The notes below the pieces were generated by a model. It saw nothing but the letters and a program-made list of their open reading frames with translations. It searched no databases and was not told the DNA's origin. The translations under genes and the position numbers were made by a program. This document shows, piece by piece, positions 7,947-32,000 of a stretch of DNA of 32,000 bases. The stretch is from NCBI GenBank assembly GCA_003144275.1, contig NJBF01000004.1, positions 60,001 through 92,000 of the forward strand, in the 5' to 3' direction. Source of the stretch: Candidatus Heimdallarchaeota archaeon B3_Heim (GTDB taxonomy: Archaea > Asgardarchaeota > Heimdallarchaeia > Hodarchaeales > Hodarchaeaceae). Each line of letters starts with the position of its first letter. Position 1 is the stretch's first letter.

Positions 7947-9389
7947 CTACTCGGGGGTTTGATTTAAATCTTTCTCAAGTATCATTTCATGAATTGCCTT
8001 AGCTGCTTTTCGACCTGCACCCATGGCTAGTATTACAGTAGCTGCACCAGTTGCTACATCACCACCACAAAAGATTCTCTCGCGGGTTGTTGCACCTGTT
8101 TCTTCATCATGTACAAACGTTCCCCATTTAGTAGTGTCCAGTCCATCAGTTGTCATTGCAATTAATTGATTGGGTCGCTGACCTATAGCGATAATAACTG
8201 TATCAACAGGAAAAATAAATTCTGTTTCTGGAATTGGAATCGGTCGTCGACGACCTGAAGCATCTTTTTCTCCTAGATCCATTTTCATACATTTCAGACC
8301 TACAACGTTTCCTTTATTATCGCCAATTATTTCTAACGGTAATGTTAATTCTCCGATAACTACTCCCTCTTCTTTAGCGTGAATTATTTCCTCTAATCGT
8401 GCCGGAATTTCTCCTTCTGATCGTCGATAAATTATATCGACCTCTCGTGCTCCTAGTCGTAAAGAGGTTCTTGCACAGTCCATTGCAACATTACCTGCTC
8501 CGACAACGGCGACTTTTTCCCCAATTGTCACTGGCGTATCATAATCAGGGAACATGTAACCTTTCAAAAGATTTACTCTGGTGAGAAACTCATTTGCAGA
8601 AAATACACCATTAAGGTTTTCTCCAGGAACGTCCAGAAAATTCGGAGTCCCAGCACCAGAAGCAACATAGACAGCATTAAAGTTATACTTTTCTAAAAGC
8701 TCATCTACAGTTATAGTTCTCCCAATAAGCGCATCTTTTTCAAATGTCACACCTAATGCCATGACAGATTTAACTTCGTCATTTACAACAGATTTGGGCA
8801 TTCGGAACTCAGGAATTCCGTAGGTTAAGACACCACCGTATTCATGTAATGCTTCGTAGACAGTTACTTTATGACCTAATATGGCTAACTCTGCAGCACA
8901 TGTCAAACCTGAGGGTCCAGAACCAACAACAGCAACTTTACTACCTAATTCGCTAGCAATATTTCTATCCCCACTTTCTCCATAATCTGCAACAAATCTT
9001 TCTAGATTCCCAATAGAAATAGCATTGGGATGAATACAGAACTCTTGACATTGATTTTCTTGAGGACAAACTCGTCCAGTTATCGCTGGAAGGCTATTGG
9101 TGCACAAGATAATGTCTTTCGCCCCATTGATATCATTTTCAAACAGTTTTTGAATGAATTCTGGAATTTGGACACTAACAGGACAACCTTTCACACAGCG
9201 AGGTTTCTTACACTTCAAACAGCGAGAGGCTTCCTCCAGAGCTTCTTTATCTGTATAGCCTAAAGCAACCTCATTGAAATTACGAATTCGTTCACGAGAT
9301 TCTTGAACACTCATATGAGTTCGTTTTTTCTTGAGCTTTTGCTTGCGTTGTTGCCTATTTTTTTCCCTTTCTTCACTCATAATGTTCAA
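7947..9389 (-). CDS. NfnB/SudA-type NADPH-dependent oxidoreductase (GltD-like large subunit), copy 1
   Basis: CLKCKKPRCVKGCP and GRVCPQENQCQEFC Fe-S motifs, IGNLERF, GSGPSG (FAD), YGIPEFRMPK, GAGNVAMD and YRRS (NADP), GGDVATGAATVILAMGAG. Start is TTG 9389 or ATG 9380. Confidence 0.92.
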   Translation of the reverse strand: MNIMSEEREKNRQQRKQKLKKKRTHMSVQESRERIRNFNEVALGYTDKEALEEASRCLKCKKPRCVKGCPVSVQIPEFIQKLFENDINGAKDIILCTNSLPAITGRVCPQENQCQEFCIHPNAISIGNLERFVADYGESGDRNIASELGSKVAVVGSGPSGLTCAAELAILGHKVTVYEALHEYGGVLTYGIPEFRMPKSVVNDEVKSVMALGVTFEKDALIGRTITVDELLEKYNFNAVYVASGAGTPNFLDVPGENLNGVFSANEFLTRVNLLKGYMFPDYDTPVTIGEKVAVVGAGNVAMDCARTSLRLGAREVDIIYRRSEGEIPARLEEIIHAKEEGVVIGELTLPLEIIGDNKGNVVGLKCMKMDLGEKDASGRRRPIPIPETEFIFPVDTVIIAIGQRPNQLIAMTTDGLDTTKWGTFVHDEETGATTRERIFCGGDVATGAATVILAMGAGRKAAKAIHEMILEKDLNQTPE

Positions 9390-9395
9390 GACTCC

Positions 9396-11243: not shown

Positions 11244-11451
11244 TCATGCCTGATCTAATGAAAGTAATAGTTTTAAAATAATGATCTAGGTGAATATAGG
11301 TAATTGTCGCTCAAATATTGCGATTAATATTGCAGTATTTAATTGATATTCTCACACGCAATCATGAATATCCTAAGATTTTTGAAGTTAATACATAAAT
11401 GGAACGTAAAGAGATTCAAACTGACTAAAATAATTATTCATTTGTAAACAC
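11244..11451. promoter_or_regulatory. divergent promoter region between the TrxR-NfnA fusion operon and the longin/uDENN gene pair
   Basis: About 210 bp of AT-rich non-coding sequence between divergent starts, with a direct repeat AATATTGC at 11314-11321 and 11326-11333. Confidence 0.35.
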
Positions 11452-12420
11452 TTGATGGCAGCAAACACAATGAATATAGATCCTTTTAGTACGAATTCTA
11501 CACTACTGGAGAAATCGACCGAGACTAGTCCATTTTCTTCGACCTTGATCGGATTCTTCTTGTGTTCCTTTGACACAACTTATGGCTTACAAATTCTTTT
11601 TTCTATTCCTGCAAAATTGAAAAAAAACTCCTCAGAACATGATATATTGAAGACACACTATATTTGGAAAGTTGAACATATCCCCATTCCCATTCGTATA
11701 GATCTAAAGATTTCTGAATTTATCTATTCAGCACTTCAATTGATTGGACCTAAATCACATGACGCAGAAGCTACCGTTGAAAAACCGATTTTCGGAATTG
11801 TTTTAAAAATATGGAAGGATGGAGAACATATTCCTCTTGAATTAATTGAACAATTCAGAGACGATCTCCAAATTAATCATTGGAATGACATTGAAATCCT
11901 GTATAAGCGACAAATCCTTGGTTTAAATCCTGCTAAAAGACGTAAATACATACAGCTTTCGGACAAAGTGGCTAAAATCGGAAAATTTCTTCAGACAACT
12001 TGGGAAGATCTAGGAAACAACGTATCCAATACCAAGATGTTCTTTAAAAAACAAAATTTGTCGATTCCCAAATCTTCTGTGTATTCAAGAAGTCAAAAAA
12101 CTCCTGGAAAGAGCTTTTTTAAGGATCCAGTCACAATGCGAGTTTTAGACTCTAAATATCAAAACGATGAGGTTTTAGTAATTTTAGTGAATCAAATGGA
12201 GACATTAGAAGATGTTAAAATCAGAGTGTCTAAAAAGACGGAATTTTTCAGTGAAAATTTATGGGAACAGGATCTTGAGGAATGGCCTACAAAGGAGGAT
12301 CTAATTTTGGAATTTCCACGATCATCAAAATTGGAAAGCTATTTGCTAAAAATAAGTAGCAAAAACCAAACAGTGGCAATTAAATCATTGAATATCGATT
12401 CTACAGATATTAAGTTATAA
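11452..12420 (+). CDS. longin/uDENN-like N-terminal domain protein with C-terminal beta-sandwich-like domain (paralog A)
   Basis: N-terminal IGFFLCSFDTTYGLQILFSIP resembles the hhhhhFD...GP.h...hP start of uDENN/longin (NPRL2/FLCN-type) domains. Visibly paralogous to 12501-13514. Exact start uncertain (TTG 11452, ATG 11455 or 11470). Confidence 0.5.
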   Translation: MMAANTMNIDPFSTNSTLLEKSTETSPFSSTLIGFFLCSFDTTYGLQILFSIPAKLKKNSSEHDILKTHYIWKVEHIPIPIRIDLKISEFIYSALQLIGPKSHDAEATVEKPIFGIVLKIWKDGEHIPLELIEQFRDDLQINHWNDIEILYKRQILGLNPAKRRKYIQLSDKVAKIGKFLQTTWEDLGNNVSNTKMFFKKQNLSIPKSSVYSRSQKTPGKSFFKDPVTMRVLDSKYQNDEVLVILVNQMETLEDVKIRVSKKTEFFSENLWEQDLEEWPTKEDLILEFPRSSKLESYLLKISSKNQTVAIKSLNIDSTDIKL

Positions 12421-12500
12421 AATAGCTACAGGAAAAGATTTAATTTTCAATTTTCTAATGTTTTGTTAATTAATTTGTATTTGAGTATCTATCCTATTAC

Positions 12501-13514
12501 TTGGAGTTCATTTTTTTGCCGAATGGGAAATCAAATCCTATTGATTCATATCACCTTCAAGTAAAAGATCGCTCTTTCGGATTCTTCATTTATTTTTATG
12601 ATGAATTACAAGGTCATTCACTACTGTTTGCCTATCCAAAGGCTCTCATGTCAAGTGAAAACGAAAGGGCCATCTTAGCTATTCACCCAGCGTGGTGGCA
12701 TCAAGATCAATTCCTTAAGTCTGAAAAATTCTCTACAATGGATCTTGAACTTAGTGGAGTGGTATATTCTGCCACTCTCTTCGAATGTGATACACAACGG
12801 TTGAAGAGACGGCCAGGCATGAAAGCAATGAAATGGCAAAAGGAGAGATTTATCCTCATCGTGAAAGCTCCTGAAAAAGTTTCTTTCATTGCTCAAGAAA
12901 TACTCCACGAGTTTCATTCCCAGATAAAGGAAAAATTCAGTAAACATTTGTGTTATCTCGTGCGATTTCAGCTTGAATCGACTAATAAGGCTGAGAACAA
13001 GGACTTTTTACCAGACAACGTTAAATTAGTGGAAGAGGGACTAGCTGAAATTTGTCAATCATTAACTCCTAACACACCAATTAGTAAACTTGAACCTTTA
13101 TTTCATATGGACAGAGAAAGGGAACCTGGCAAAAGGACTACTTTGAACTCTGTACCAAAAAAGAAATTAAGATTCGCGATTCCAAGAAGTAAAGATAGTA
13201 AAATTATTGGCCAGAAAACTTCAGATCATTCTCAAGAAAGTCCAAAATCGATCAAAATTCTATCAATAAGTAGAGGGGAAGATTTAGTAAAAATTTCAGT
13301 AAAAAATACAACTCCTTTCGATCTAAAAAATGTAGTTATCCGAGTCTATGAATCTCATGGTTTCGTTGGTAAAGACAAGAAAGTCAAGAAACTTTTGAAA
13401 TGGGCTCCAAATGAGGTTAGTGAGTTAGAATTTAAACCTGAATTAGATAAAGGGATACGTTACTTACTTAAAATTGAAGATGAAGAAGATAATCTAAAAA
13501 TAAAACGAATTTAA
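12501..13514 (+). CDS. longin/uDENN-like N-terminal domain protein with C-terminal beta-sandwich-like domain (paralog B)
   Basis: FGFFIYFYDELQGHSLLFAYP; shares IL..H..W...DL.+S..+YSA and the C-terminal domain with 11452-12420. TTG start. Confidence 0.5.
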   Translation: MEFIFLPNGKSNPIDSYHLQVKDRSFGFFIYFYDELQGHSLLFAYPKALMSSENERAILAIHPAWWHQDQFLKSEKFSTMDLELSGVVYSATLFECDTQRLKRRPGMKAMKWQKERFILIVKAPEKVSFIAQEILHEFHSQIKEKFSKHLCYLVRFQLESTNKAENKDFLPDNVKLVEEGLAEICQSLTPNTPISKLEPLFHMDREREPGKRTTLNSVPKKKLRFAIPRSKDSKIIGQKTSDHSQESPKSIKILSISRGEDLVKISVKNTTPFDLKNVVIRVYESHGFVGKDKKVKKLLKWAPNEVSELEFKPELDKGIRYLLKIEDEEDNLKIKRI

Positions 13515-13531
13515 AGGTAGGAAAATGCGCT

Positions 13532-13930
13532 TTGAACATAACAAAGGTTAAAGATTTAATGACAAAGGATTTAATAACTATTAGTGGGGATAAAAGTGTG
13601 ATATATGCTTCAGAATTAATGATAGAGAAAAATATTGGTTCTTTATTGGTTTATGAAGATTCCGAAGTGATAGGGATAATTACAGAACGGGATATTGTAA
13701 AAAAAATAATAACCGATTGTAAAGACCTATGTGAAGTTATGGCAATAGAAATTGCTACAAAAGATTTAATCACAATTGCGCCAAAGGATACAATTGAACA
13801 TGCATTAATCACGATGTACAGAAAAAATATTAAACGAATTCCCGTTAAAGATCCTATCTCTCATGAATTAGTAGGTATTATCACAACTCATGACATCATT
13901 GCCGCATTCAATACACTTGAACTAACTTAA
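13532..13930 (+). CDS. stand-alone CBS-pair (Bateman) domain protein
   Basis: VKDLMTKDLITI...ASELMIEKNIGSLLV...GIITERDI and IATKDLITIAP..TIEHALITM.RKNIKRIPV...VGIITTHDI. TTG start with AGGTAGG upstream. Confidence 0.93.
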   Translation: MNITKVKDLMTKDLITISGDKSVIYASELMIEKNIGSLLVYEDSEVIGIITERDIVKKIITDCKDLCEVMAIEIATKDLITIAPKDTIEHALITMYRKNIKRIPVKDPISHELVGIITTHDIIAAFNTLELT

Positions 13931-13939
13931 TTCCGATAA

Positions 13940-15673
13940 TCATTTTTTCACGTCTTCTGCAACAATAATTTTTGACATAATCTTACCATGTAGGTCATTA
14001 ATTGTAATCAGATATTCTTTTTCGCTTTTGTCAATGCGGGGACAATCAACTTCGTGTTCTTCACCAGGTGACCATTGAGGTACAGTTTTTTCGAACATTG
14101 TTGTTTCAAAGAAATCATGAACGTGAGAAATTCGGATTTTAACTTGATCAAGTTCTTTTTCGGAAACGTTAACTAAATTTACTCTTAGATAAACTGATTT
14201 TGGATAGATTGCTACATATTTTAATTCTAATATCTCTTTAGGAATCACAAAGCTTTCAGTAATTTCCTCTGTAGGTGGAAAAAGATCTTCATGAATAGCC
14301 ATTGCCGATCGTCGTCCAGCACCCATTGCAGAAATAACTGTTGCAGCTCCAGTTACAATATCCCCACCCGCGTATACAAACGGTTTACTAGTCCTTCCCA
14401 ATTCATCAGTCACAATATTTCCCCATTTATTCACCTCTAAATCTGGTGTAGTCATTGTAATCAAAGGATTGGCTTTATTTCCTATCGCAATGATAATCAG
14501 ATCCGTAGTGAGTTCAAAATAGTCCCCTTCTATCGGAACTGGTCTGGCACGGCCAGATTTATCTGGTTCCCCAAGTTCATATCGTTGGCAGCGAATAGAC
14601 TCAATTCTCCCTTTTTCGTCACCCATGATCTCTACTGGATTAGATAATAACTTAAATTGAATTCCTTCCTCTTCTGCATGGTGAACTTCTTCCAATCTCG
14701 CTGGCATTTGTTCCCTAGAACGACGATAGACGATATATACATTTTTAGCATCGAGTCTTAAAGCAGTTCTAGCTGAATCCATGGCGACGTTTCCTCCACC
14801 GACTACAACAACATTTTTGCCAGTAAGTAATGGTGTATTATAATCGGGATAAAGGTACGCCTTCATCAAATTCGAACGTGTCAAATATTCATTAGCAGAA
14901 TAAACCCCTTGCAAATTTTCTCCTGGAATATTCATAAACACAGGTAAGCCAGCTCCAACTCCAATATAAACTGCATCGTATCCATCCTCAGAAAATAATT
15001 CATCAATACTGCGAACCCTCCCAATAACTGAATCATAAACAAATTTGACACCAGAATTCTCCAAATTCTGAATTTCATACTGTACAACTGATTTAGGAAG
15101 TCTGAATTCAGGAATTCCATATACAAGAACGCCTCCACCAAGATGAAATGCTTCATAAACCGTTACTTCATACCCCTGTTGTATTAAATCGCCAGCCGTT
15201 GTTAGACCTGAGGGTCCACTCCCGATAATAGCTACTTTTTTCCCATTTTTCTTAACTCGCATGGGTTCAGGAATATGGCCACTAGATCTTTCATAGTCTG
15301 CAACAAACCGTTCGAGATTACCAATTCCTACAGATCTTCCTTTTTTACCCCTAACACAAACACCTTCACATTGAGATTCCTGAGGACAAACACGACCGCA
15401 AACAGCAGGGAGAACATTTCTTTCTTTAATTTTCCAAGCAGCCTCTAAAAATTTCCCTTCTTGTGCAAGAGATATAAATTCTGGTATTGGAACACGTACA
15501 GGACACCCTTCAACACATTTAGATTTCTTACAGTTCAAACATCGATTTGCTTCCTGAATTGCCATCTCTTCGGAATAGCCATAAGGAACTTCACGAAAAT
15601 TCTTTGCTCGTACCTGAGGAGGTTGGGTTGGCATTTCAGAAAAAACTATCTTCATTCGGTCTTTAGACTTCAT
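13940..15673 (-). CDS. NfnB/SudA-type NADPH-dependent oxidoreductase, copy 2, with about 110-aa C-terminal extension domain
   Basis: CLNCKKSKCVEGCP, GRVCPQESQCEGVC, GSGPSG, YGIPEFRLPK, GGGNVAMD, YRRS, GGDIVTGAATVISAMGAG. The core ends at ...AMAIHEDLF (about 14280), followed by an extra domain. Confidence 0.92.
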   Translation of the reverse strand: MKSKDRMKIVFSEMPTQPPQVRAKNFREVPYGYSEEMAIQEANRCLNCKKSKCVEGCPVRVPIPEFISLAQEGKFLEAAWKIKERNVLPAVCGRVCPQESQCEGVCVRGKKGRSVGIGNLERFVADYERSSGHIPEPMRVKKNGKKVAIIGSGPSGLTTAGDLIQQGYEVTVYEAFHLGGGVLVYGIPEFRLPKSVVQYEIQNLENSGVKFVYDSVIGRVRSIDELFSEDGYDAVYIGVGAGLPVFMNIPGENLQGVYSANEYLTRSNLMKAYLYPDYNTPLLTGKNVVVVGGGNVAMDSARTALRLDAKNVYIVYRRSREQMPARLEEVHHAEEEGIQFKLLSNPVEIMGDEKGRIESIRCQRYELGEPDKSGRARPVPIEGDYFELTTDLIIIAIGNKANPLITMTTPDLEVNKWGNIVTDELGRTSKPFVYAGGDIVTGAATVISAMGAGRRSAMAIHEDLFPPTEEITESFVIPKEILELKYVAIYPKSVYLRVNLVNVSEKELDQVKIRISHVHDFFETTMFEKTVPQWSPGEEHEVDCPRIDKSEKEYLITINDLHGKIMSKIIVAEDVKK

Positions 15674-16560
15674 GATGTTTCCTCTTCCCTGGATTTTTCT
15701 TGATATTTAGCTAAGGATCGGCATTCAGGAGAAAAATTCTGTAAACTAAGTGTTTCCTCACTAATATACAAGGTGTTACGTACATGTATTATTTCCTCCC
15801 AATCAATTTTATGGGCATTAAATTCTGGTCCATCAACGCATGCAAATTTTGTTTTACCATCATAAGATAAACGACAGCTTCCGCACATCCCTGTTCCATC
15901 CACCATAATTGTGGTAACTGTAGCATAGGTTGGAATAGCTCCTTTTTCTTTCGTTAGCTTTGAAACCTTGCTCATCATGACATTGCAGCCAATAACTTTG
16001 ATATGATCAATTTTTCGTTGTTGAGATTCAATCATGTGCTCAAGCACATCGTAAATATGTCCCCGTTCTCCTTTAGATCCATCAGTGGTAACAAGGATGA
16101 CTTCATCACTCACAGTTTTGAATTCCTCTTCATAATAAAGTAAATTCTCGTTTTTAGCCTCAATAATTGTTATTACGTGGTTTCCAAGTTCCTTGAGTCT
16201 TTTTGCTATTGGATAGGTCGCACCTACTCCATAACAACCCCCACTCACAACAACTGTTCCAAAATTCTCTAGATAAGCTGGTTCCCCTAATGGCCCTACA
16301 ATGCTATAAAATGAATCTCCTTCTTCCATAAATGCCATTTTGGAAGTAGATAATCCTAATTCCTGGACAATAAATGAAATCGTACCTTTTTCTTTATCCC
16401 AATCTATTAAGGTTAAAGGTATTTTTTCTGACCGTTCATCTACCATTACTAAGATAAATTGACCTGCTTTAGCTTTTCTTGCTATAGTAGGAACTGATAT
16501 ATCTAGCTTGTAAAAATTGGGTACAAATTCTTCCTTTTTTAGAATTTCAAATTTGGACAT
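15670..16560 (-). CDS. NfnA/SudB-type FAD/NAD-binding [2Fe-2S] subunit, copy 2
   Basis: AKAGQFILV...EKIPLTLID, VGPLG, TDGSKG, MVDGTGMCGSCRL...CVDGPEF. 4-bp ATGA overlap with the downstream NfnB. Confidence 0.92.
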   Translation of the reverse strand: MSKFEILKKEEFVPNFYKLDISVPTIARKAKAGQFILVMVDERSEKIPLTLIDWDKEKGTISFIVQELGLSTSKMAFMEEGDSFYSIVGPLGEPAYLENFGTVVVSGGCYGVGATYPIAKRLKELGNHVITIIEAKNENLLYYEEEFKTVSDEVILVTTDGSKGERGHIYDVLEHMIESQQRKIDHIKVIGCNVMMSKVSKLTKEKGAIPTYATVTTIMVDGTGMCGSCRLSYDGKTKFACVDGPEFNAHKIDWEEIIHVRNTLYISEETLSLQNFSPECRSLAKYQEKSREEETS

Positions 16561-18157
16561 CTAATACACCTTTTCCTTTTGACTGGTTGATAGCACGCTT
16601 TGAAGTTATATACAGCCTAAACTCTTCAACTTTGTCAGCTATGGGAACTCCCATATACTCAAGCTGTTGTTTTGATACCTTAGGTATTTCTAGTGGTTCG
16701 GCATTCCTTATTTCATCCTGTAAATTTTCAATTGATTCATGATTAAATCCATCTAATCCCATTGATTGAGCTAGGCGGCTTACAATGATCCAGCTAGGAA
16801 GTGCCTCTCCTGGTGGTTCAACTGCTTTATTTATTGCGTATTTCATGTATTCTTCTCCCGATTTTGTTCCGTCTTCTTCAGCGAACATTGTCGTTGGAAG
16901 AACGACCTCAGCAGTATCAGAAGAATTCGATTGGTATATATCCTGTAGAATCAGGAATTCTAGACCATCAAATTCAGAGAAAACATTCGAATTAAAGGTA
17001 GAAAAGATTGCTTTTACTCCTTGAGACTGTAAATTCTTGATATCTTCTTCGATAAATACAACGGGGTTGGTACTGACTCTTTGTGCAAATTTCAAAAGAA
17101 GATAAACTGCTTCGTCAGTTAAAGATGGAGATAATATAATTCCGATTTCCTCAGGTTTGTAGCCTTTCAACTTATCAGCCGTGTGTGTAATTGCTTCATC
17201 CCAAGGAACTGGATACTGCTCTTCTTTGATTACTTTACGTTTGACAGTAGGGTATTTAAGTCGGTCACGACCATTTACAAGAGCTGGAATACAAAATCGT
17301 CCTTTTACACAATATTCACGACGAGCTGACAATTCATATGGAGGATGAACGTTTACTACCTTATCCCACTTTACGTCAATTACCATTTGACATCCGTGTG
17401 AACATAGATTACATGTTGTTGTAACAGATTTATCGGGAGTTCCAAACCATGTCGAACCACGGGCAATGAGAGCTCCTGTCGGACATACATCAATACAATG
17501 ACCACAAAATACACACCCGCTTTCGAGGTGAGATACTTCTAAAATAGTTCCTACTTTGGTATCATGGCCACGTTTAGTTAGAGCAATAGCACTATATCCC
17601 AATACATCTTGACAGGCTCGAATACAACGAGCACATAGGATACAAAGGTTATAATCTCTTACAAGAAATGGATCATCACGTTCCAACGGAAGATTTTTAT
17701 AAAGCATTGGATACCGTATATCTTTGACCCGTAAATACTCAGAAATTTCTCGAATTTCGCATATTTCCTTGTTACTACAAGTAAAACATCCAATAACTCG
17801 TCCTGCTTTATATTCCCCATGGCGTACTTTTTCACATTCATCGTGTTCCTTACATATTATACAATAACTAGGATGTTCAGCAAGGATTAATTGGAAAACA
17901 TTTCGACGAACAGTTTGTAAATCTGGTGTTGCAGTTCGAACAACCATTCCTTCTCTGGCAGGTAATGTACAGGAATTGGGGTAAGTTCGGTTTCCCTCTA
18001 CATCAATAATACATAATCGGCATGCACCAAATGAAGGTAAATCTGGTCTTGCGCAGAGAGTAGGGATAAAAATTCCAGCTTTTGTAGCTACTTCAAGTAC
18101 AGTCTCTCCTTCCTCAAACACAACACGCCTCCCATTAATATTCATCCACTTGGTCAT
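16547..18157 (-). CDS. NuoG/HydA/FdhA-like multi-Fe-S subunit with internally truncated molybdopterin-fold remnant (no evident catalytic site)
   Basis: [2Fe-2S] IPTLC...GACRLC...SC; His-ligated H..YC..C...C plus a second C..C....C; 2x[4Fe-4S] CILCARCIRAC / CVFCGHCIDVCPTGAL; TTCNLCSHGC...CVKGR. Start reassigned to ATG at 18157 (TAATG overlap with the upstream stop, GGTGG SD) rather than 18241. Confidence 0.85.
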   Translation of the reverse strand: MTKWMNINGRRVVFEEGETVLEVATKAGIFIPTLCARPDLPSFGACRLCIIDVEGNRTYPNSCTLPAREGMVVRTATPDLQTVRRNVFQLILAEHPSYCIICKEHDECEKVRHGEYKAGRVIGCFTCSNKEICEIREISEYLRVKDIRYPMLYKNLPLERDDPFLVRDYNLCILCARCIRACQDVLGYSAIALTKRGHDTKVGTILEVSHLESGCVFCGHCIDVCPTGALIARGSTWFGTPDKSVTTTCNLCSHGCQMVIDVKWDKVVNVHPPYELSARREYCVKGRFCIPALVNGRDRLKYPTVKRKVIKEEQYPVPWDEAITHTADKLKGYKPEEIGIILSPSLTDEAVYLLLKFAQRVSTNPVVFIEEDIKNLQSQGVKAIFSTFNSNVFSEFDGLEFLILQDIYQSNSSDTAEVVLPTTMFAEEDGTKSGEEYMKYAINKAVEPPGEALPSWIIVSRLAQSMGLDGFNHESIENLQDEIRNAEPLEIPKVSKQQLEYMGVPIADKVEEFRLYITSKRAINQSKGKGVLDVQI

Positions 18158-19992
18158 TATGGTACCACCTTTTGGGGCCTGTCTTGTTTGAAGATAGCTG
18201 TTTTTGGACAACTTGAATGACAGATGCCACATGTAACACACACTGCAGTGTCAATGAAATGCACTTGCCCCTTTTCTCCAGTAATAGCACTAACGGGACA
18301 ATTACGAGCGCAAATTGTACACCCATTGCAAAGACTTTCATCAATGACATAATTAATGAGATCTTGACAGTCTTTCGCCAAACAGCGCTTTTCAAAAATA
18401 TGAGATTGATACTCATTACGGAAATACTTAAGAGTCGTTAATACTGGATTTGGGGCAGTTTGGCCTAAAGCACATAAAGAACCCATCTTAACAGTATAAG
18501 CAAGTTCCTCCAAAAGCATAAGATCCTTGTCTTCCCCTTTTCCAGTAATAATTCGCTCCAAAATTAATAGCATGGCTCTGGTTCCAATCCTGCATGGAAT
18601 ACACTTACCACATGATTCAGCTTGAGTGAAAGTCAAAAAATAATGAGCAAGTTTGACCATACAGTTAGTTTCATCAAGTACTATCATTCCCCCTGAGCCC
18701 ATAATACTTCCCGAAGCTGCCATGGTTTCATAATCAACTGGTGAATCCAAATGACTTGGGGGTAAACATCCCCCAGAAGGGCCACCAGTTTGAACAGCTT
18801 TGAATTCTCTATCATCAAGAATTCCACCCCCAATTTCGTATACAATCTCCCTCAAAGGAGTTCCCATGGGAACTTCAATCAAACCTAGATTTTTAACTTT
18901 CCCAGTTAAAGAAAAGATAGCCGTTCCAGTAGCATTCTCAACACCTATTCCATGGAACTTTTCCCACCCATTTTTAAAGATCCACGATGCTGATGCCCAT
19001 GTTTTAACATTGTTAATATTTGTAGGTTTACCCCAAAGTCCAGAAGTGGCAGGAAAGGGCGGCCTAGTACGAGGATTCCCACGATGTCCTTCTATAGAAG
19101 CCATTAATGCGGTTTCTTCCCCACAAACAAACGCTCCAGCACCTTCATGAACCGATATATCAAGAGAAAGACTAGAATTTAGAATATTGTCACCTAGAAA
19201 CCCTCTTTCCTTTGCTGTGACAAGAGCACGGCTAAAACGCTTGATTGCAAGAGGATACTCGGCTCGACAATATATAATTCCATGGGAGGCACCAATAGCA
19301 TATGCACCGATAATCATACCTTCTAATACACTATGGGGATCAGCCTCAAGTAAGGAGCGATCCATAAACGCCCCAGGATCTCCCTCATCAGCATTACAAA
19401 TGATATATTTTTCACTACCAGGAGCATCATGACAAAATTGCCATTTCAGACCTGTAGAAAAACCTGCTCCTCCTCGTCCTCTTAACCCTGAATCTGTGAT
19501 TATCTGAATTATTTCTTCTGGTTTTTTTTCTAGGGCACTCCTTAATCCTGAATATCCCCCAGTATTCATATAAGCATCAATTTCTTCTGGATTAATATGG
19601 CCACAATTACCCAAGATCATTCTAGTTTGTTTACTGTAAAAATCGATATTTTTATAATTTCCAATGCGTTTATTTAGTTTAGGATCCATGAAAAAGAGAT
19701 CTTCGACAAGAACATCGTTTTTAAGATGCGATTCAACAATTTGTTTGACATTAGGAGATTTAACCTGAGCGTACATAACACCTTCTGGCTCAATGATAAC
19801 AATTGGCCCTTGTGCACAAAATCCATGGCAGCCTGTGAAATCTACCTTTATTTTTTCCTGCAAATTGAAGTTTTTAAGCTGTTCTTCAAATTCCTCACTA
19901 ATTTCATCCGATTTAGATGATACACACCCGGTTCCCTTGCAAATTAGAACAGTCTTCTGATAATATTTTTGTAATGATTCCACCTGTGTCAT
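18157..19992 (-). CDS. NuoF/HydB (BfuB)-like FMN/NADH-binding subunit
   Basis: N-terminal thioredoxin-like [2Fe-2S] domain (ICKGTGC...GCHGFCAQGP), SGLRGRGGAGF, CNADEGDPGAFMDR, FVCGEETAL, GGPSGG, ESCGKCIPCRIG, H..EKRC...C, and C-terminal 2x[4Fe-4S] CNGCTICARNCP / CVTCGICHSSCP. Confidence 0.95.
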   Translation of the reverse strand: MTQVESLQKYYQKTVLICKGTGCVSSKSDEISEEFEEQLKNFNLQEKIKVDFTGCHGFCAQGPIVIIEPEGVMYAQVKSPNVKQIVESHLKNDVLVEDLFFMDPKLNKRIGNYKNIDFYSKQTRMILGNCGHINPEEIDAYMNTGGYSGLRSALEKKPEEIIQIITDSGLRGRGGAGFSTGLKWQFCHDAPGSEKYIICNADEGDPGAFMDRSLLEADPHSVLEGMIIGAYAIGASHGIIYCRAEYPLAIKRFSRALVTAKERGFLGDNILNSSLSLDISVHEGAGAFVCGEETALMASIEGHRGNPRTRPPFPATSGLWGKPTNINNVKTWASASWIFKNGWEKFHGIGVENATGTAIFSLTGKVKNLGLIEVPMGTPLREIVYEIGGGILDDREFKAVQTGGPSGGCLPPSHLDSPVDYETMAASGSIMGSGGMIVLDETNCMVKLAHYFLTFTQAESCGKCIPCRIGTRAMLLILERIITGKGEDKDLMLLEELAYTVKMGSLCALGQTAPNPVLTTLKYFRNEYQSHIFEKRCLAKDCQDLINYVIDESLCNGCTICARNCPVSAITGEKGQVHFIDTAVCVTCGICHSSCPKTAIFKQDRPQKVVP

Positions 19993-20486
19993 TCTGGTTC
20001 CTCCTTCGATTTTTCCTTCTTAATCATCCGATTGATAAGTTGGAGTAACTTTGAAGGCTTTACCTGACCGTAGATTTCGTTATCTATTTGTACAACAGGA
20101 GATAGTGCACAACACCCTAAACACGCAACACGTTCAAAACTAAATAGACCATCTTCAGTTGTTTCACCAGGTTCTATTCCTAACTTTGTCCTCACTGCTT
20201 CTGCAAGAATATTTCCACCTTTTACGAAGCAGGCAGTACCAAGACATACCGAGATAATATGTTTTCCCGGTTTAATAAATTTAAACTGCTGATAAAAAGA
20301 AGCGACCCCATAAACTTCATTTGGTGATAATTCAAGATGTTCACTAATCTTTATCAGATTTTCCTTGGATAAATATCCATATTCTTTCTGTACATCCTGT
20401 AATATTGGAATCAGGTGTTCTTGCTTCTTCCCCCTCAAATTTAAGATCTCGTGAATTGTCGAATCTATAGCCTCTGCTGCAACCAC
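19989..20486 (-). CDS. NuoE/HydC (BfuC)-like [2Fe-2S] subunit
   Basis: LIPILQDVQ..YGYL, YGVASFY, VCLGTACFVKG, ACLGCCALSP. GTG start with GGAG SD; ATGA overlap with the NuoF-like gene. Confidence 0.95.
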   Translation of the reverse strand: MVAAEAIDSTIHEILNLRGKKQEHLIPILQDVQKEYGYLSKENLIKISEHLELSPNEVYGVASFYQQFKFIKPGKHIISVCLGTACFVKGGNILAEAVRTKLGIEPGETTEDGLFSFERVACLGCCALSPVVQIDNEIYGQVKPSKLLQLINRMIKKEKSKEEPE

Positions 20487-20701: not shown

Positions 20702-21613
20702 TTATTCCTCACTACTCATCTCAATCAGTAATTCTGCGAAAATTTCCATTTCTTTTAATAATTCTTGAATTGATTCTGCTGGATCAGCTGGTCCCTGCTC
20801 ATCCATCATCATAAGAACGGTTAACACATAACTAAAAATATGAACTTTCAACTTCTTTACATCTGAGCTAGCTGAGAAAAATGCGGATTCAGATGTCAAA
20901 AAATTCTCACGCAGAACATTGCATGCGAAAATATATTCACGAAGGTCTTCACGAAGCTGAATACCAGTAGCAAATCCTTCGATATTATGTGTAATGACAT
21001 TCCCATTAACATCGGTAATTATAATCTTGGAATTCAATTTCGATAAGTATTCTTGTGCACTTTCAACGCTTTTCTTCAATTCTTCAAAATCTGCGATCAA
21101 AAGTTGCTTTATAAAATCACTGAGTTCTTCTTGTCTATAAACAGAGGTTAAAAATTCACGGGGAGAATATTTAACTATAAATGGAAGCTGTTTGGCTTTT
21201 TTGAGATTTTTTTCAAGAGTAGCTTCTACATAATCTTCTGTATCATATTTATGATAGAAGATTTTCACACGAGGATCTCCGTCTTCTTCTTTAATTGCCG
21301 AATAAACATTATCAAAGTACTCGTTTGCCAAGTCAAAATTCTCAGGGTTATGAAGATCAAGAACAAAAATCAAAATTGATGTATTTGCTAATAACTTTGG
21401 TGTTTCTAAATAGCTTTCACGATATTTTTCTTGGCCTCCAAAATCCCATAATGAAACCTGAATCCCAAGATAATTATGGCTTTTGACCTCATACATAACC
21501 GTAGGCCCAAGATCTTTGACCTCTAGAGGAGTCATTCCTCCGAAAGTTGTCGAGTAGATAGATGTTTTTCCGCAACCACTAAGACCAACTAGTGAGATTT
21601 TCATACTTCTCAT
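20702..21613 (-). CDS. Rag/Gtr-like small GTPase with C-terminal roadblock/longin-like domain
   Basis: G1 GLSGCGKT, G2 GPTV, G3 WDFGGQ, G4 HKYD, G5 TSVY. About 125-aa C-terminal alpha/beta domain (…KIIITDVNGNVITH…). Confidence 0.8.
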   Translation of the reverse strand: MRSMKISLVGLSGCGKTSIYSTTFGGMTPLEVKDLGPTVMYEVKSHNYLGIQVSLWDFGGQEKYRESYLETPKLLANTSILIFVLDLHNPENFDLANEYFDNVYSAIKEEDGDPRVKIFYHKYDTEDYVEATLEKNLKKAKQLPFIVKYSPREFLTSVYRQEELSDFIKQLLIADFEELKKSVESAQEYLSKLNSKIIITDVNGNVITHNIEGFATGIQLREDLREYIFACNVLRENFLTSESAFFSASSDVKKLKVHIFSYVLTVLMMMDEQGPADPAESIQELLKEMEIFAELLIEMSSEE

Positions 21614-25009: not shown

Positions 25010-26014
25010 ATGAGTCATTATCTTAAGCAACTAAAGACCCAAAGTTCTCGCAAAATAATACTTTTAGGTCTTTCTCAGGCAGGAAAAACCTCCATACGTG
25101 ATGTTGTTTTCGGAGGCAAAGCACCAGAAGAAACTGCCGATTATGCTGCAACGTTGAACTATGAACGTCAAGTTGAGCAAGTTGCTGATGAGCCTATTAC
25201 AGTGATGGATCTTGGAGGACAGGAAGTTTTTTTGAAACGTTTCCTCAGCAGTATGAGTTCATTCATTTTCAGCAATGTGGCAGTCTTGGTTTTTATCTGT
25301 GATATCTCAACATCTGATAACTTCCCCGCTTCGCTAAAAGCATTCGTCGAAGGCACAAATCGGCTAGAAGAAATGTCAGATGTTCAACCAGCAGTCTATA
25401 TTTTATTGCATAAAACCGATTTAATGCCCGATTTAACTCAAAGAGCAGAAAGAATGGAATTTCTTATGGAGATGTTCCAAACTTCGGTTGTTACAAAAAA
25501 TATTACCTTTTTACAAACTTCAATTTATGATAATTCAATTCATGAGGCATTTAAACGAATTACTGCTGAAGCGAGCGAAATTATTCCTGAAGCAGCTGAA
25601 GTCGAAAAAGAAGAAGACTTAGAAGCTATTCAAAGAAGATTACGGATGCGTCCCATTCAGCAAGTGTTACATGCATTAAAATTCATGAATCGCTTGGATG
25701 ATGTCCTTTTACTATCTACAGTGGAATCCGACTTTATTATTAGTGCATCCGACACAGAAATCAATGAAATTCAACAATTCATAACCATTCTTGATAAATC
25801 AAGAGATTTATGGCTAATTCCCAGTTCGAAATCAGAATTAATGAAAATCGGTAACATCATGTTATTCCGAGCTTCTGTTCCTCCTCATTACTTAATTCTT
25901 CTTGTCTCCTCTGACGAAAAATCCATGTTGGAGACAAGAAAATTGTTAGAAATCGAAGAAACTGTTCGTCTTCTGACAAGTCAACTAGAAAACATGCTGA
26001 AAACACCCATCTAG
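25010..26014 (+). CDS. RagA/B-like small GTPase with C-terminal roadblock-like domain
   Basis: G1 GLSQAGKTSIRDVVF, ATL, DLGGQ..FL, IFSNVAVLVFICD, HKTD, FLQTSIYDNSI. Closely colinear with eukaryotic RagA/Gtr1 motifs. Confidence 0.85.
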   Translation: MSHYLKQLKTQSSRKIILLGLSQAGKTSIRDVVFGGKAPEETADYAATLNYERQVEQVADEPITVMDLGGQEVFLKRFLSSMSSFIFSNVAVLVFICDISTSDNFPASLKAFVEGTNRLEEMSDVQPAVYILLHKTDLMPDLTQRAERMEFLMEMFQTSVVTKNITFLQTSIYDNSIHEAFKRITAEASEIIPEAAEVEKEEDLEAIQRRLRMRPIQQVLHALKFMNRLDDVLLLSTVESDFIISASDTEINEIQQFITILDKSRDLWLIPSSKSELMKIGNIMLFRASVPPHYLILLVSSDEKSMLETRKLLEIEETVRLLTSQLENMLKTPI

Positions 26015-26024
26015 AGGTACCGCT

Positions 26025-26969
26025 TTGCAACAAAACCTAATCATACTAGCTGGCTTATCTCACTCTGGGAAAGATTTGTTATTTAGCCAGATATTAAAAT
26101 TAGGGCGCGCAGAGCCAGGACTGAGACTTCGTGAGAATCTTATTTACTACGAGTGGCTCAATAGATCCTTCAAAGGAAATGAGGATTCATATTTTGAAAA
26201 AGCACTGCCAGCATTGAAAGAAAAATTATACTTGAAAATTAATACACTAATCTATGTCCATGATATTTCATATCAAGTGTTGGATGATTTAGCAAACGAT
26301 TTTAAAGAAGTATATTTCGATATCAAAAAAGTAAACAAAGATTTTCAAGTAATTTTGATAGTAAATAGAGGCCATCTTATCCCAAATGAATTAGAACGAA
26401 CAAAAATTCACAAAAAGGTTGAAAATCATCTCCAGCAACTTATTCCTCAAGAAATTACCTCTTATATTGTCTCTTTGAAGGGTACTGATCAGCAAAGGAT
26501 GACAAATCTTGTTTTTACTCAGATAGCAAATAAGGCAGTGGATTTCACTAAAAACCTTAAGAAAAAACGTGATTCAAGTATAAAAATTCCAAATGATAAA
26601 CAGCTCAAGAAAATTAAAAAAATTCTAAAAGAAAAAATGGACGATTACGGATTTTCAGGTGCTTATCTAATAGGTCACAATCAAGATATTCTGATTGCCG
26701 CTGGAAAAAGTGAGGGGTGGGAAACAAAAGTGGGCCCACAAATTATTCGCATGTTAGCACAGTTTCACGTGTTTGATTTAGGCCCACAATTTCAAGCAGA
26801 CATTATTCGAATTGAAGATTTTGTAATGATTGCTAAAAGGATCAATGCGGAGAATAAAATTATCTTAATTGGAAGGGAATCAATTTTTAAGTACGATGAG
26901 GAACCTTATCCTCGAATAGAAGAAAGTTGTCTCGATATCACAACTGATATTCTAGAAATACTAAAATAA
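26025..26969 (+). CDS. degenerate (pseudo-)GTPase domain fused to a roadblock/LC7-like domain
   Basis: LIILAGLSHSGKD (P-loop, lacking the S/T), no DxxG, NTLIYVHD strand, G4-like NRGH, G5-like VSL. C-terminus ILKEKMDDYGFSGAYLIGHNQDILIAAG resembles a roadblock domain. TTG start with GAGGT SD. Confidence 0.6.
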   Translation: MQQNLIILAGLSHSGKDLLFSQILKLGRAEPGLRLRENLIYYEWLNRSFKGNEDSYFEKALPALKEKLYLKINTLIYVHDISYQVLDDLANDFKEVYFDIKKVNKDFQVILIVNRGHLIPNELERTKIHKKVENHLQQLIPQEITSYIVSLKGTDQQRMTNLVFTQIANKAVDFTKNLKKKRDSSIKIPNDKQLKKIKKILKEKMDDYGFSGAYLIGHNQDILIAAGKSEGWETKVGPQIIRMLAQFHVFDLGPQFQADIIRIEDFVMIAKRINAENKIILIGRESIFKYDEEPYPRIEESCLDITTDILEILK

Positions 26970-26990
26970 TACGAAGAATTGAGTTACTAG

Positions 26991-27806
26991 GTGGAAACCG
27001 TGTTTTCTGGACTAATTGTTACAACCATGGGTGATAAGGGGCCCTACCCACTATTGAATTTATCTTCCATTCCAGAGGACACAGCTGAAAACCTAAGTGT
27101 TATCGGTATGACCATCCTCTTCATGGGAGCAGGAACACTTGCTGAAAGACAACATTATCGTCTACACGGATCACTTCCTGTTCCAAACAATCCGAATATC
27201 GAAGCACTTGCCTTATCCTTTACTGTCTCTCCAACAGAGACATCTGATATTCGTATTGATCAGCATGGACGAGAATCAACCATTTGGCTCCTCTTTAAAT
27301 CAGAAAATCGCGAACGGGTTTTCCAGCTTCACCCTGCTATTGAGCGAGCACTACAGGAAGAGACTAAGAATATTAAAGACGAAAGTGATCTCTCTGATCC
27401 AGAAAAGATGGAAAAAGTTCTATCACGTTTAAAACAAATCACTGAGTCACCAGGTTCTTACGTACCAGTGTCAGATGAGAGTGAACCATCTTACATTCAC
27501 GAAAAGGGAGGTCTTGAGTTCTTCACTGTTAATACTGAAGGCGATTTGAGAGAAATTAATCTTCAAACAGATCTTGCAACACTTCCCGTTCTTATCCTTG
27601 TGAATACACTTCTTAAACGGATTTTCCTAATTAAATTGAAAGATTCTGTGTCCCAACACTTGATGTTTCATGCTGGAACATCAGCTTCTAATATCAATAC
27701 AAATCGCTTTAAAAATAGGTTTTCTATACGAGATGTATTAGATCCAATGGAACGAGCAATGATCTTGGAAAAGATTGGAATAATTCAGGAAATTGGTTCC
27801 CAATAG
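26991..27806 (+). CDS. longin/uDENN-like domain fused to a C-terminal gelsolin-like domain (tentative)
   Basis: N-terminal GLIVTTMGDKGPYPL...HGSLPVP...LALSFTV...SDIRIDQHGR. C-terminal (27510-27806) FTVNTEGDL...VLILVNTLLKRIFLIK...VSQHLMFHAGTSASNINTNRF resembles a gelsolin repeat. GTG start. Confidence 0.45.
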   Translation: METVFSGLIVTTMGDKGPYPLLNLSSIPEDTAENLSVIGMTILFMGAGTLAERQHYRLHGSLPVPNNPNIEALALSFTVSPTETSDIRIDQHGRESTIWLLFKSENRERVFQLHPAIERALQEETKNIKDESDLSDPEKMEKVLSRLKQITESPGSYVPVSDESEPSYIHEKGGLEFFTVNTEGDLREINLQTDLATLPVLILVNTLLKRIFLIKLKDSVSQHLMFHAGTSASNINTNRFKNRFSIRDVLDPMERAMILEKIGIIQEIGSQ

Positions 27807-27821
27807 GAGCTACTACCAGAA

Positions 27822-28754
27822 ATGTCACATTTAAGAAGAAGAAAAAAAGTTTCTAAAGTTCTTATCTTGGGACTAGCGGAATCAGGGAAATCGACTATTA
27901 TAAAAGTAGTCAATGAGGGGAAAATCCCATCAAAAGATGATGATTATAACGCTACAATCGACTACGAGCGTAAACAAAAGGTTGTAGCAGGAACTGAATT
28001 AACAATATTTGATTTAGGAGGGCAGACAGCTTTTCTTGACAGATTCACTGGCGAATTGTCAGAATTTATTTTTACTGGAGTAAAATCATTTGTATTTGTA
28101 GTAGATTCGATTGAAATCAAAAATATTTCACGTGCAAAGTATTATCTAGATTTAGCTGTAAAGAAATTAGCCCAGTTTAGTCCAGAGGCGACCTTATTCA
28201 TTTTCCAGCATAAAGCTGATTTAATCCCGAAAAAAATGAAACAGGAAGTCAGGAAAACAATAGAAGATTATTTAGGATCAGGAATCCCTAAAAAAATTAA
28301 ATATTATGAAACATCAGTCTTCTCTGATTCCATTTTCAAAGCTATGGGTGAAGTCTACGCAGATGCGAGCGGTGCCAGAAAAACTTTACGTCCTCTCCTG
28401 GAGACGTTCATCCAACATAATATGGCTGACATGGCTCAAATATTCACAAAAGAAGGAGCTCCCCTAACTAAAGTTGAAAAAGTGTCGAAATTTGAACATA
28501 TCAATCTATATGAAGTCCGAGAATTTTTCGATGCCGTTGTCAAGCGTTTAGCGGACTCGGAAACTCACACAGCTACATCAACACTTCTCGAATCCGACCA
28601 ACGTGTTTTTGTTATTCGGTTTATGGAAAATGGTTTAGCACTGTTTTTCGGATTTTCAAAAAGTCGACTCAGAGAAAGAAATGAGCCTGTAGCTTCCCTC
28701 TATAACAGAGTTCTCGCATTTAGCTCTCAATTACAGAGCATTACGGAGAGTTAA
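27822..28754 (+). CDS. Rag/Gtr-like small GTPase with C-terminal roadblock/longin-like domain
   Basis: G1 GLAESGKS, ATIDYE, FDLGGQ..F, FIFTGVKSFVFVVD, HKADL, ETSVF. C-terminal alpha/beta domain (MAQIFTKEGAPL…VFVIRF…LALFFGF). Confidence 0.85.
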   Translation: MSHLRRRKKVSKVLILGLAESGKSTIIKVVNEGKIPSKDDDYNATIDYERKQKVVAGTELTIFDLGGQTAFLDRFTGELSEFIFTGVKSFVFVVDSIEIKNISRAKYYLDLAVKKLAQFSPEATLFIFQHKADLIPKKMKQEVRKTIEDYLGSGIPKKIKYYETSVFSDSIFKAMGEVYADASGARKTLRPLLETFIQHNMADMAQIFTKEGAPLTKVEKVSKFEHINLYEVREFFDAVVKRLADSETHTATSTLLESDQRVFVIRFMENGLALFFGFSKSRLRERNEPVASLYNRVLAFSSQLQSITES

Positions 28755-28836
28755 ACGTAAGCTGTGAAAAGCTTGCGGATTTTTGTATCTAAAATCGACT
28801 TAAAACCGACATGTACCTAATATTAATGACCGTATC

Positions 28837-30727: not shown

Positions 30728-32000
30728 CTAGAAATCATGATAATAGGCATCATTTTTTCGCTGGTCCCGATCTAAGCGGCTTCCCAACTTGTTTAACCGG
30801 GCTCGTCCAGTTTCAGGATCTCTACGAAACGTAACATCTATTTCCTTCAAAAATCTATTAAGGGCTGCTTTTTTGGTTAATGGTCCAACTGTTCGACCTA
30901 TACTCCCTGGAGTTCCTTCAAAGAGCATAATCCTATCTGCTAACGCGTCAGCGATTTGAATATCGTGCTCGATTGCAATACATGCGGCATTGTTTTTGGA
31001 GACTATATGACGGATGACACGAGTGGCTTTCAAACGTTCTTCAACATCAAGAAATGCGCTTCCTTCATCAATGATGTACAAGTCTGCTTTTTTCCCTAGA
31101 CAACCTGCAAGAAAACATCGTTGAAGTTCTCCTCCACTCAGTGCGCGTATTGGTTTATCTAAAAGATGCGAAATTGAGAATGGCTTCAGGATATAGATGC
31201 TAAAAGCACGAGAGCCTATGAATAAATTTGTGTACTGAGTCAAAAACTCCCGCACGGTTCCTGTAAATTTTCGGTGTAGAAATTGCGGCTTAAAGGAAAC
31301 CGTTACTGACTTTAATGATTGAGTGAGGTGGCGAGCGAAAGTGGTTTTCCCTAATCCATTTTCTCCAAGAATGCAGAGTATTTCCCCAAAATAATTCATC
31401 CCTTTATCAACAGTTAAATTAAATGACCCGACTTGTTTTTGGAATGCTGGAAATTCTACCCCAGGTCTTCCCTCCCAATCTCTCTCTTTCACTACGCGGG
31501 TAAACTGAATACGTTTGCCACGTATCCGAACATTCTCATCTTTTAATCGACCGAGAAGAAAGTTGTTGATTCCTTTCTTAGTACTATATGCTAAAGTTGA
31601 GATAACCCCAAATTTATGTGGTTCTCCATAAAATAAATAGATCAGATCACTCTGAAAGTCAAGGATAGCAATATCATGCTCAGCAATAAAGATAGTTTTT
31701 CCTGCAGAAGCCAATTGGTGAAAAATCTTTGCCATTTTTATGCGTTGCCGGAAATCCAAGAATGTACAGGGCTCGTCAATGAGATAGACATCGGCATTCT
31801 GTAATAGAGCTTTACCGATGGCTAGTCTTTGCAACTCTCCCCCGGATAATTCTTTAGGAATTCGATTTAGAATTGGAGTGAACTCCATCAGCTCAATTAC
31901 TTCTGTTAGGGAATAATATCCTTGATTCTCACTTTGTGATAAGATATCTGATACCGAATCTGAAATTTCAGTAAGATGGGTGAAGATTTGAGGTTTATGC
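30728..32000 (-). CDS. ABCE1/RLI-like twin-NBD ATPase (5' end beyond window; divergent)
   Basis: The frame stays open from 31888 to the window end (HKPQIFTHL…). It contains LSGGELQR twice, DEPCTFLD, EHD, GINNFL.G.L.DENVR.R hinge, GENGLGKTT, KPQF, and TFRRDPETGRARLNKLGSRLD. Confidence 0.9.
   Translation of the reverse strand, partial: HKPQIFTHLTEISDSVSDILSQSENQGYYSLTEVIELMEFTPILNRIPKELSGGELQRLAIGKALLQNADVYLIDEPCTFLDFRQRIKMAKIFHQLASAGKTIFIAEHDIAILDFQSDLIYLFYGEPHKFGVISTLAYSTKKGINNFLLGRLKDENVRIRGKRIQFTRVVKERDWEGRPGVEFPAFQKQVGSFNLTVDKGMNYFGEILCILGENGLGKTTFARHLTQSLKSVTVSFKPQFLHRKFTGTVREFLTQYTNLFIGSRAFSIYILKPFSISHLLDKPIRALSGGELQRCFLAGCLGKKADLYIIDEGSAFLDVEERLKATRVIRHIVSKNNAACIAIEHDIQIADALADRIMLFEGTPGSIGRTVGPLTKKAALNRFLKEIDVTFRRDPETGRARLNKLGSRLDRDQRKNDAYYHDF

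Follow-up and report, generated by a model that had tools for sequence, protein, structure and literature searches.

The gene described here encodes a fusion of a longin domain with a gelsolin-fold domain and lies among Rag-like GTPase genes in a Hodarchaeales genome (3.9 Mb, 94%-complete assembly), of which a stretch of 32,000 nt, hereafter the window, was analysed. In its predicted structure the N-terminal domain is a longin nearest to the GAP-type longins. We favour, with modest confidence, the explanation that the protein is a dedicated regulator of the surrounding Rag-like GTPases, probably a GAP, in which the gelsolin domain serves as a second binding arm within the module. The most informative feature is the combination of a GP motif with a loop carrying a conserved arginine, which was absent from the initial annotation. 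The features of the locus are as follows (positions in the window):

25010 to 26014, plus strand: Rag-like GTPase 1 with intact G1-G5 motifs and G3 DLGGQ (PF04670, E 1.4e-33; motifs conserved in 21 rows)
26025 to 26969, plus strand: degenerate Rag-like protein with a G1-like GLSHSGKD and no recognisable G3 (PF04670, E 3e-5; found in 20/20 loci)
27000 to 27806, plus strand: gene of the longin-gelsolin fusion, encoding 268 aa when read from its probable start, GTG 27000 (26991 in the ORF listing)
27003 to 27446, plus strand: GAP-type (folliculin/NPRL2/SMCR8-like) longin domain, residues 5-152, from the model, structure matches and hhalign
27039 to 27044, plus strand: GP motif, G17-P18, where strand 2 begins (G and P each in 75/76 cluster representatives)
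27246 to 27272, plus strand: beta4-beta5 loop D86-x-R88-I-x-x-x-G93-R94, with R88 as candidate arginine finger
27447 to 27503, plus strand: variable linker predicted with low confidence, residues 153-171 (pLDDT < 50; 30% mean pairwise identity)
27504 to 27800, plus strand: gelsolin-fold domain, residues 172-270, lacking both W-x-G and calcium ligands, with a long helix at about 27654-27710
27822 to 28754, plus strand: Rag-like GTPase 2 with G3 DLGGQ and a C-terminal extension (PF04670, E 4.4e-32)
28756 to 28777, plus strand: terminator-like hairpin right after the stop codon of Rag-like GTPase 2 (a consensus match of a kind no commoner than in shuffled sequence)

The open reading frame 26991-27806 on the plus strand is real and intact, as had been annotated; its start, however, is probably not at 26991. 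The GTG at this position directly follows an in-frame TAG and lies inside a Shine-Dalgarno-like AGGTGG (26989-26994). Because residue 4 is the first residue in both the database record and the homologues, GTG 27000, located 9 nt downstream, is the likely start. Residue numbers are nevertheless counted from GTG 26991. Close relatives comprise 70 database proteins with 54-100% identity, and the usable names among these are mostly Hodarchaeales or Heimdallarchaeota. Pfam scans of the whole protein, of the C-terminal domain and of both domain alignments did not find a relevant family, and a single-sequence PDB search returned chance matches alone. The lack of a Pfam match to either half explains why the gene is annotated as hypothetical. 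AlphaFold2, run with 65 sequences, predicted the longin domain (residues 5-152), a disordered linker of low confidence and a second alpha/beta domain.

The model of the longin domain matched best the Lokiarchaeal roadblock-longin domain 8YQG, which is a dimer (Z 14.1), followed by Lst4 and C9orf72-SMCR8 (Z 11.4 each), the folliculin complex (10.3) and GATOR1 (9.6), whereas the longins of adaptins and SNAREs scored lower (Z 7-8). No paper was found for 8YQG or 9M28. Searching the PDB sequences with the longin profile gave no match, 8YQG included, and scans with PF06218 (NPR2) were without a match anywhere, a result that carries no weight. A whole-protein Atlas search had matched residues 4-250 to folliculin/C9orf72; a cDENN-like second domain, which this match would imply, was ruled out by the domain-wise structure matches.

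It has been described that a GP motif at the start of strand 2 marks the longins of GAPs (PMC12290439). By hhalign, G17-P18 aligns with the GP of the Asgard FLCN-like longins, and the two longin families proved to be homologous (probability 92.9, E 3.7e-7). A second proposed mark of longin GAPs is a conserved arginine between strands 4 and 5 (bioRxiv 10.64898/2026.01.05.697756). R88 is situated between two longin strands, one of which ends at residue 80 while the next starts at residue 94. Among 76 cluster representatives D86 is present in 76, R88 and G93 in 74 each and R94 in 68, whereas position 90 is variable. Since R88 lies between strands 4 and 5 and is almost invariant, it is a good candidate for the finger.

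The register of this arginine is ambiguous. The motif D-x-x-A-R-G-x-x-R of the Asgard FLCN-like proteins aligns without gaps with R164 of human FLCN and R147 of SMCR8, with E-values that are weak (0.04-0.12) yet belong to the top matches. The beta4-beta5 loop of the longin-gelsolin family is five residues longer than that of the FLCN-like proteins. In the hhalign register D86 pairs with D160 of FLCN, the variable D90 falls on the finger, and R88 comes to lie two residues before R164, a proximity that makes GAP activity plausible. HMM alignments of Loki proteins produced both registers, some of them placing R88 on the finger position. From these alignments R88 is a plausible candidate arginine finger; alternatively, it could be structural.

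The C-terminal domain was modelled alone with a pLDDT of 90.6 and a pTM of 0.82. It forms a mixed sheet with a long helix and a C-terminal helix and is superimposable on gelsolin domains. The best structure match was ProGel of Thor (7C2F; Z 11.3, rmsd 2.5 A, 87/88 residues), and the top 21 of 48,161 chains were all gelsolin-family or Sec23 chains, followed mostly by cofilins and Sec24. A profile made from 32 fused domains found 7C2F as the sole significant match in the PDB (E 0.0046), which is sequence evidence independent of the structure model. Within the genome itself the best non-self matches of this profile were four free gelsolin-type proteins and one fused paralogue; E-values on the free gelsolin-type genes ranged from 4e-6 to 7e-4, and by PF00626 two of the four free proteins lie above the cut-off, one at the cut-off and one below it. 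The structure match and the model-independent profile match together lead us to regard the gelsolin identification as right, and with the longin matches they bear out the fusion of a longin/uDENN-like with a gelsolin-like domain that had been read from the sequence. Foldseek, suggested as a check at that time, connected the domain to 7C2F (E 2.6e-4); PF00626 did not match the protein. An ESM Atlas search with the higher-confidence model of the domain agreed on gelsolin, whereas the look-up of residues 168-271 with the Atlas's own model did not recover it.

Residues were compared across three sets: fused domains of the orthologue type (21), domains of paralogues (10) and free domains (14). Both the W and the G of W-x-G occur in none of the 21 fused domains and in 11 of the 14 free ones. 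The Asgard actin regulators ProGel, 1DGelX and 2DGel carry W-x-G after strand 4, as a DWG motif, and score with PF00626; both signs are lacking here, and the protein of the window has P199, I214 and K217. The calcium-ligand positions were transferred by way of the genome's 2DGel aligned to human G1: the acidic helix positions correspond to L224 and N236, the strand-3 Asp to P199. The initial annotation was therefore correct in stating that W-x-G and the calcium-binding residues had been replaced. Calcium independence as such was rejected as the novelty of the protein, since ProGel and 1DGelX are already calcium-independent (PMC7444086).

The main helix of the fused domains partly retains the pattern of the free gelsolins, with R223 in 15/21, F/Y226 in 20/21, R/K230 in 17/21, and A232. 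Position 225 near the start of this helix is K/R in 11 of 14 free domains but basic in only 2 of 21 fused ones, where it is mostly hydrophobic. The protein of the window departs from the pattern in that R223, L227 and R230 are replaced by H, H and T; in P0027, an orthologue nearer to the consensus, R223 and R230 are retained. Other residues are specific to the fused domains and not common to free gelsolins, namely K241 (19/21; G in 11/14 free domains), R247 (18/21) and D251 (20/21). Conservation among close orthologues amounts to 78-79% at the end of the helix and in the last strand, compared with 62% in the first half of the helix. In an unrooted tree the fused domains stand apart from the free gelsolins with a support of 92/91, and fused, paralogue and free domains separate at 92-94 / 80-91, the domains being short and some branches long. 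Judged from these sequence comparisons, the fused domain appears to be ProGel-derived with a changed partner surface. Another heimdallarchaeial family contains proteins (L063, L064, L066) that begin with a stand-alone gelsolin-like domain, likewise without W-x-G, and continue with a linker and a short C-terminal part.

The gene is the third in the order Rag1, pseudo-Rag, longin-gelsolin gene, Rag2, with gaps of 10-30 nt. In the two active Rags G1-G5 are intact, including the glutamine of G3. The C-terminal extension of the first seems to be roadblock-like; the second has its best PDB matches in RagA/Gtr1 and is the best candidate for the client of the longin-gelsolin protein. The degenerate Rag-like protein is, from its motifs, a probable pseudo-GTPase partner. 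Pseudo-Rag, gene and Rag2 follow each other in 20/20 related loci, which are close kin and not independent, and Rag1 is present in all 19 that are long enough; the link to a GTPase operon drawn earlier is thus substantiated. In the operon no second longin gene could be identified, and an actin gene was not seen near the longin-gelsolin gene at any locus examined. Prediction of a complex of two copies of the protein with the Rag2 G domain, GTP and Mg gave 0.26 and 0.14 against a mark of 0.32, which has no weight either way.

Some further observations concern the surroundings. A fourth Rag-like GTPase gene (20702-21613, minus strand; PF04670, E 1e-22) is divergent from an MFS gene, and its position is kept in most related loci. 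Two adjacent ORFs without Pfam matches (11452-12420 and 12501-13514, plus strand) have N-termini that look longin/uDENN-like by eye and are possibly a longin pair. The ordinary neighbours of the locus (7947-20486, 6386-7276 and 30728-31999, all minus strand) are a flavin/Fe-S oxidoreductase cluster (Nuo E/F/G-like, glutamate-synthase-like), a Memo-like gene and an ABC-ATPase resembling ABCE1/RLI. Several Rag/longin-gelsolin loci (L029, L030, L032, L033, L116) flank ORFs of 1,300-4,800 aa, some with LamG/DUF2341, and contigs with Rag loci of the genome itself bear open frames of 8,821 aa (C87) and 3,079 aa (C49). The complete Hodarchaeales operon with its gene order also occurs on a contig labelled Bacteroides sp. 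SM23_62_1 (L017), which is probably misbinned. Two orthologues appear broken, one as a split ORF in Hodarchaeum mangrovi (L024:3455-4255) and one by a single TAA (G057:C98); assembly errors or pseudogenes would account for them.

Outside the genus a Rag-like gene is adjacent or fused in 10 of 13 contexts; those without a Rag are P0085, P0088/P0086 and HeimC3_52100. In P0084 longin, gelsolin and a Rag2-type GTPase form one chain, and P0116 combines a different, GP-less longin-like domain with a gelsolin domain and the same type of Rag. Three more GP-less proteins (P0111, P0130, P0142) also adjoin Rag genes. As P0116 and these three are linked to Rag in spite of lacking the GP motif, the gelsolin domain follows Rag whatever precedes it. 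A search for longer fused forms yielded no further architecture. In the genome itself all five strong Rag matches (E < 1e-20) fall into two loci, each with a GP-longin gene, where about 2.7% of the genome lies that near to such a gene by a 7-kb distance set afterwards. Paralogues with no GTPase gene nearby exist as well (C10, C11, C63 and C48 of the same genome, HeimC3_52100 and P0088). P0088 and P0086 are tandem longin-gelsolin duplicates from a soil metagenome (L117:5001-6798), adjoined by a TnpB-like gene and with no GTPase neighbour.

Of 82 other genomes of the class Heimdallarchaeia, 80 have a match to the longin profile, compared with a minority elsewhere, and matches to longin and gelsolin within one ORF were found in six families of the class, in one of them weakly, and in two outside it. 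The more distant relatives sampled from other Asgard families have TPR-like or Rag domains as fusion partners and no gelsolin domain. One such locus (L105:230-1633) encodes a GP-longin fused to a Rag-like GTPase that has a C-terminal extension, with the canonical A-R-G finger, next to a second small GTPase gene. At seven loci in two other heimdallarchaeial families (L067, L068, L075-L079) an active Arf-like GTPase with G3 DLGGH and a G3-less sister are followed by a longin-gelsolin paralogue, which is the same plan as in the Rag operon with a different GTPase. Compared with the PDB, the DLGGH proteins match best on Arl1/Arf1, and no chain named Sar1 is among the best 60. The DLGGH itself, in which His replaces the catalytic Gln, we take to be Sar1-like.

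The genome also contains an actin gene (G000:C100:11318-12424) and six free gelsolin-type genes. Its two-domain gelsolin gene, nearest to Heim2DGel 7WHF (E 1e-85), is preceded on the same strand, at a distance of about 300 nt, by a GP-longin paralogue without a gelsolin match (L005:7693-10154, G000:C48). Canonical FLCN-like proteins of about 440 aa with D-x-x-A-R-G are present in 21/21 congeners; a PF11704 search of the 94%-complete assembly itself found none. Two longins with D-x-R stand C-terminal to other parts, namely to a membrane protein whose N-terminal region is large (G000:C76:39257-41536) and to a receiver-like domain (G000:C34:26195-27184). They resemble the signalling fusions of NPRL2-like longins (Liu et al.).

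In the explanation that we favour the longin domain would dock on the GTP-bound G domain of a Rag, and R88 would most likely be inserted as arginine finger, so that the Rag would be switched off. The gelsolin-fold domain, probably descended from ProGel-type actin regulators, may have taken on a new role in the GTPase module as a second arm for protein binding and would bind through a new conserved surface made up of N236, K241, F244, R247 and D251. It could thereby play the part that is taken by the partner longin in folliculin/GATOR1, by the cDENN in Avl9 or by the gelsolin domain in Sec23. That the protein acts on the GTPases of its operon we consider likely; that it does so as an R88-dependent GAP we would put slightly below an even chance. 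Characterised longin GAP complexes require two longins, and no second longin gene was identified in the operon; this counts against the favoured explanation, as do the ambiguous register of the arginine, the several paralogues without a GTPase neighbour and the close kinship of the syntenic loci. As regards the gelsolin domain, synteny, fusions and the exchange of the longin all point to GTPases, which ties it to these more than to actin, and we lean towards a main partner within the GTPase module.

We considered several alternatives. The protein might, as the initial annotation proposed, be an adaptor between GTPase and actin, in which the longin domain sits on the Rag module and the gelsolin domain binds actin without calcium like ProGel; the switch would then be placed on filaments or remodel them, which is compatible with the longin role assumed above. 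The only significant sequence match in the PDB and the nearest structure are one and the same ProGel, crystallised on actin, much of the free-gelsolin helix pattern persists, the genome has both actin and free gelsolins, and the two-domain gelsolin gene has a GP-longin paralogue immediately before it. Set against this are the loci examined, all without an actin gene nearby, the loss of the basic residue at position 225, the replacement of R223, L227 and R230 in the protein of the window and the lower conservation of the first helix half relative to the helix end and last strand. On balance this alternative seems possible but not likely. A different proposal is a non-catalytic scaffold like C9orf72, FNIP or NPRL3, or a GEF-like platform; any catalytic arginine would then come from elsewhere, for instance from the canonical Asgard FLCN-like DENN protein. 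The variability of position 90, the ungapped equivalent of FLCN R164, would fit this, as would the canonical FLCN-like proteins of the congeners and the example of C9orf72, which has the GP motif and yet is not the finger subunit (PMC12290439). R88, however, is kept in 74 of 76 diverse representatives in the very loop where longin GAPs bear their finger, and the GP motif is reported to be absent from non-GAP longins (PMC12290439). We regard such a scaffold or platform as rather unlikely.

Much less probable still is that the gelsolin domain itself provides the catalytic arginine, as Sec23 does for Sar1; the fusion would then preserve a GTPase-directed gelsolin domain that is missing from the Asgard Sec23-like proteins (PMC11914678). 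The gelsolin domain of Sec23 is matched at Z 8.4, with ProGel and many gelsolins scoring higher. In the GP-less relatives the fused domain still accompanies Rag genes. R247 is a clade-specific arginine but largely absent from the paralogue branch, and there is no universal arginine in the domain. The presumably Sar1-like DLGGH of the Arf-like neighbours is offset by the Arl1/Arf1 matches of these proteins. The residue nearest to the Sec23 finger is presumably R255; it was rejected as a Sec23-type finger because it is not conserved (6/21).

The longin-gelsolin protein falls outside the full definitions of FLCN/NPRL2/SMCR8, ProGel and Sec23. With FLCN (Rag GAP), NPRL2 (GATOR1, Rag GAP), SMCR8 (Arf GAP) and the Asgard GP-motif 'FLCN/SMCR8-type' longins (PMC12290439) it has in common the longin fold, the GP motif, a beta4-beta5 loop bracketed by a conserved D and R with an arginine inside, and the association with Rag- or Arf-like GTPases. 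Unlike FLCN, NPRL2 and SMCR8 it has the longer loop with the arginine in the register D-x-R instead of D-x-x-A-R-G, a gelsolin domain in place of cDENN/dDENN, a chain that ends at 268 aa, and candidate clients that are genetically linked while a partner longin gene is missing from what was identified. It plausibly works like them. The monomeric DENN GAPs Avl9/DENND6A (bioRxiv 10.64898/2026.01.05.697756) likewise unite in one chain a longin with a conserved arginine between strands 4 and 5 and a second domain that could hold the GTPase switches; in our protein this domain is gelsolin-fold, not cDENN, and the presumed client is Rag-like. ProGel, 1DGelX and 2DGel (PMC7444086, PMC9433394) share the single gelsolin fold with detectable sequence homology, the absence of calcium ligands and a similar main-helix pattern, and ProGel binds actin weakly and without calcium (PMC7444086). 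The fused domain differs from these in being the C-terminal passenger of a longin, in the loss of W-x-G, in its own conserved surface (K241, R247, D251) and in grouping separately in the tree; in agreement with the initial annotation, none of these described Asgard gelsolin types has such an architecture. Sec23, the GAP for Sar1, offers the case of a gelsolin fold in a small-GTPase context without known actin binding, but its other four domains (Zn finger, trunk, beta-barrel, helical) are missing here.

Asgard GP-motif longins (PMC12290439), Rag-like GTPases (PMC10933270) and free gelsolins (PMC7444086, PMC9433394) have already been described, as have NPRL2-like longin fusions (bioRxiv 2020.10.19.343400). 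Neither the longin-gelsolin fusion nor its operon turned up in a search of full texts, with key supplementary tables outside its reach. The locus shares with the Rag pair of MK-D1 and other Asgard Rag-like architectures (PMC10933270) the placing of Rag-like genes in an operon and their C-terminal extensions. In MK-D1, as a rule, GTPase and longin genes do not share operons, which makes it hard to match GAPs there (PMC10933270); here the longin regulator is inside the Rag operon, and a gelsolin fusion is not mentioned in that work.

It has been stated that gene order rarely helps to match Asgard GTPases to their regulators (PMC10933270), and the question has been raised whether Rag GTPases, Arf-related GTPases or both are the partners of the Asgard GP-motif longins (PMC12290439). 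The longin-gelsolin family gives matched candidates, Rag-like in Hodarchaeales and Arf-like in two other heimdallarchaeial families, so that a set of only three or four small proteins would suffice to test the ancestry of folliculin/GATOR1/C9orf72-SMCR8 regulation. The family also shows a gelsolin domain that travelled with small GTPases before eukaryotes, an ingredient missing from the Asgard Sec23-like proteins (PMC11914678). If this domain still binds actin, GTPase switches would be linked to the Asgard cytoskeleton. In the boldest version, which we think improbable, a single chain would combine a longin that switches the GTPase off with a gelsolin domain that still binds actin, and the Heimdallarchaeia would possess complete operonic circuits, Rag-like and Arf-like, of active GTPase, pseudo-GTPase and longin GAP. 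Should this be true, Rag/Arf signalling would have been wired directly to the actin cytoskeleton before eukaryotes arose, in the class to which their closest known archaeal relatives belong, and the recruitment of a gelsolin domain to GTPase control in Sec23 would have a precedent.
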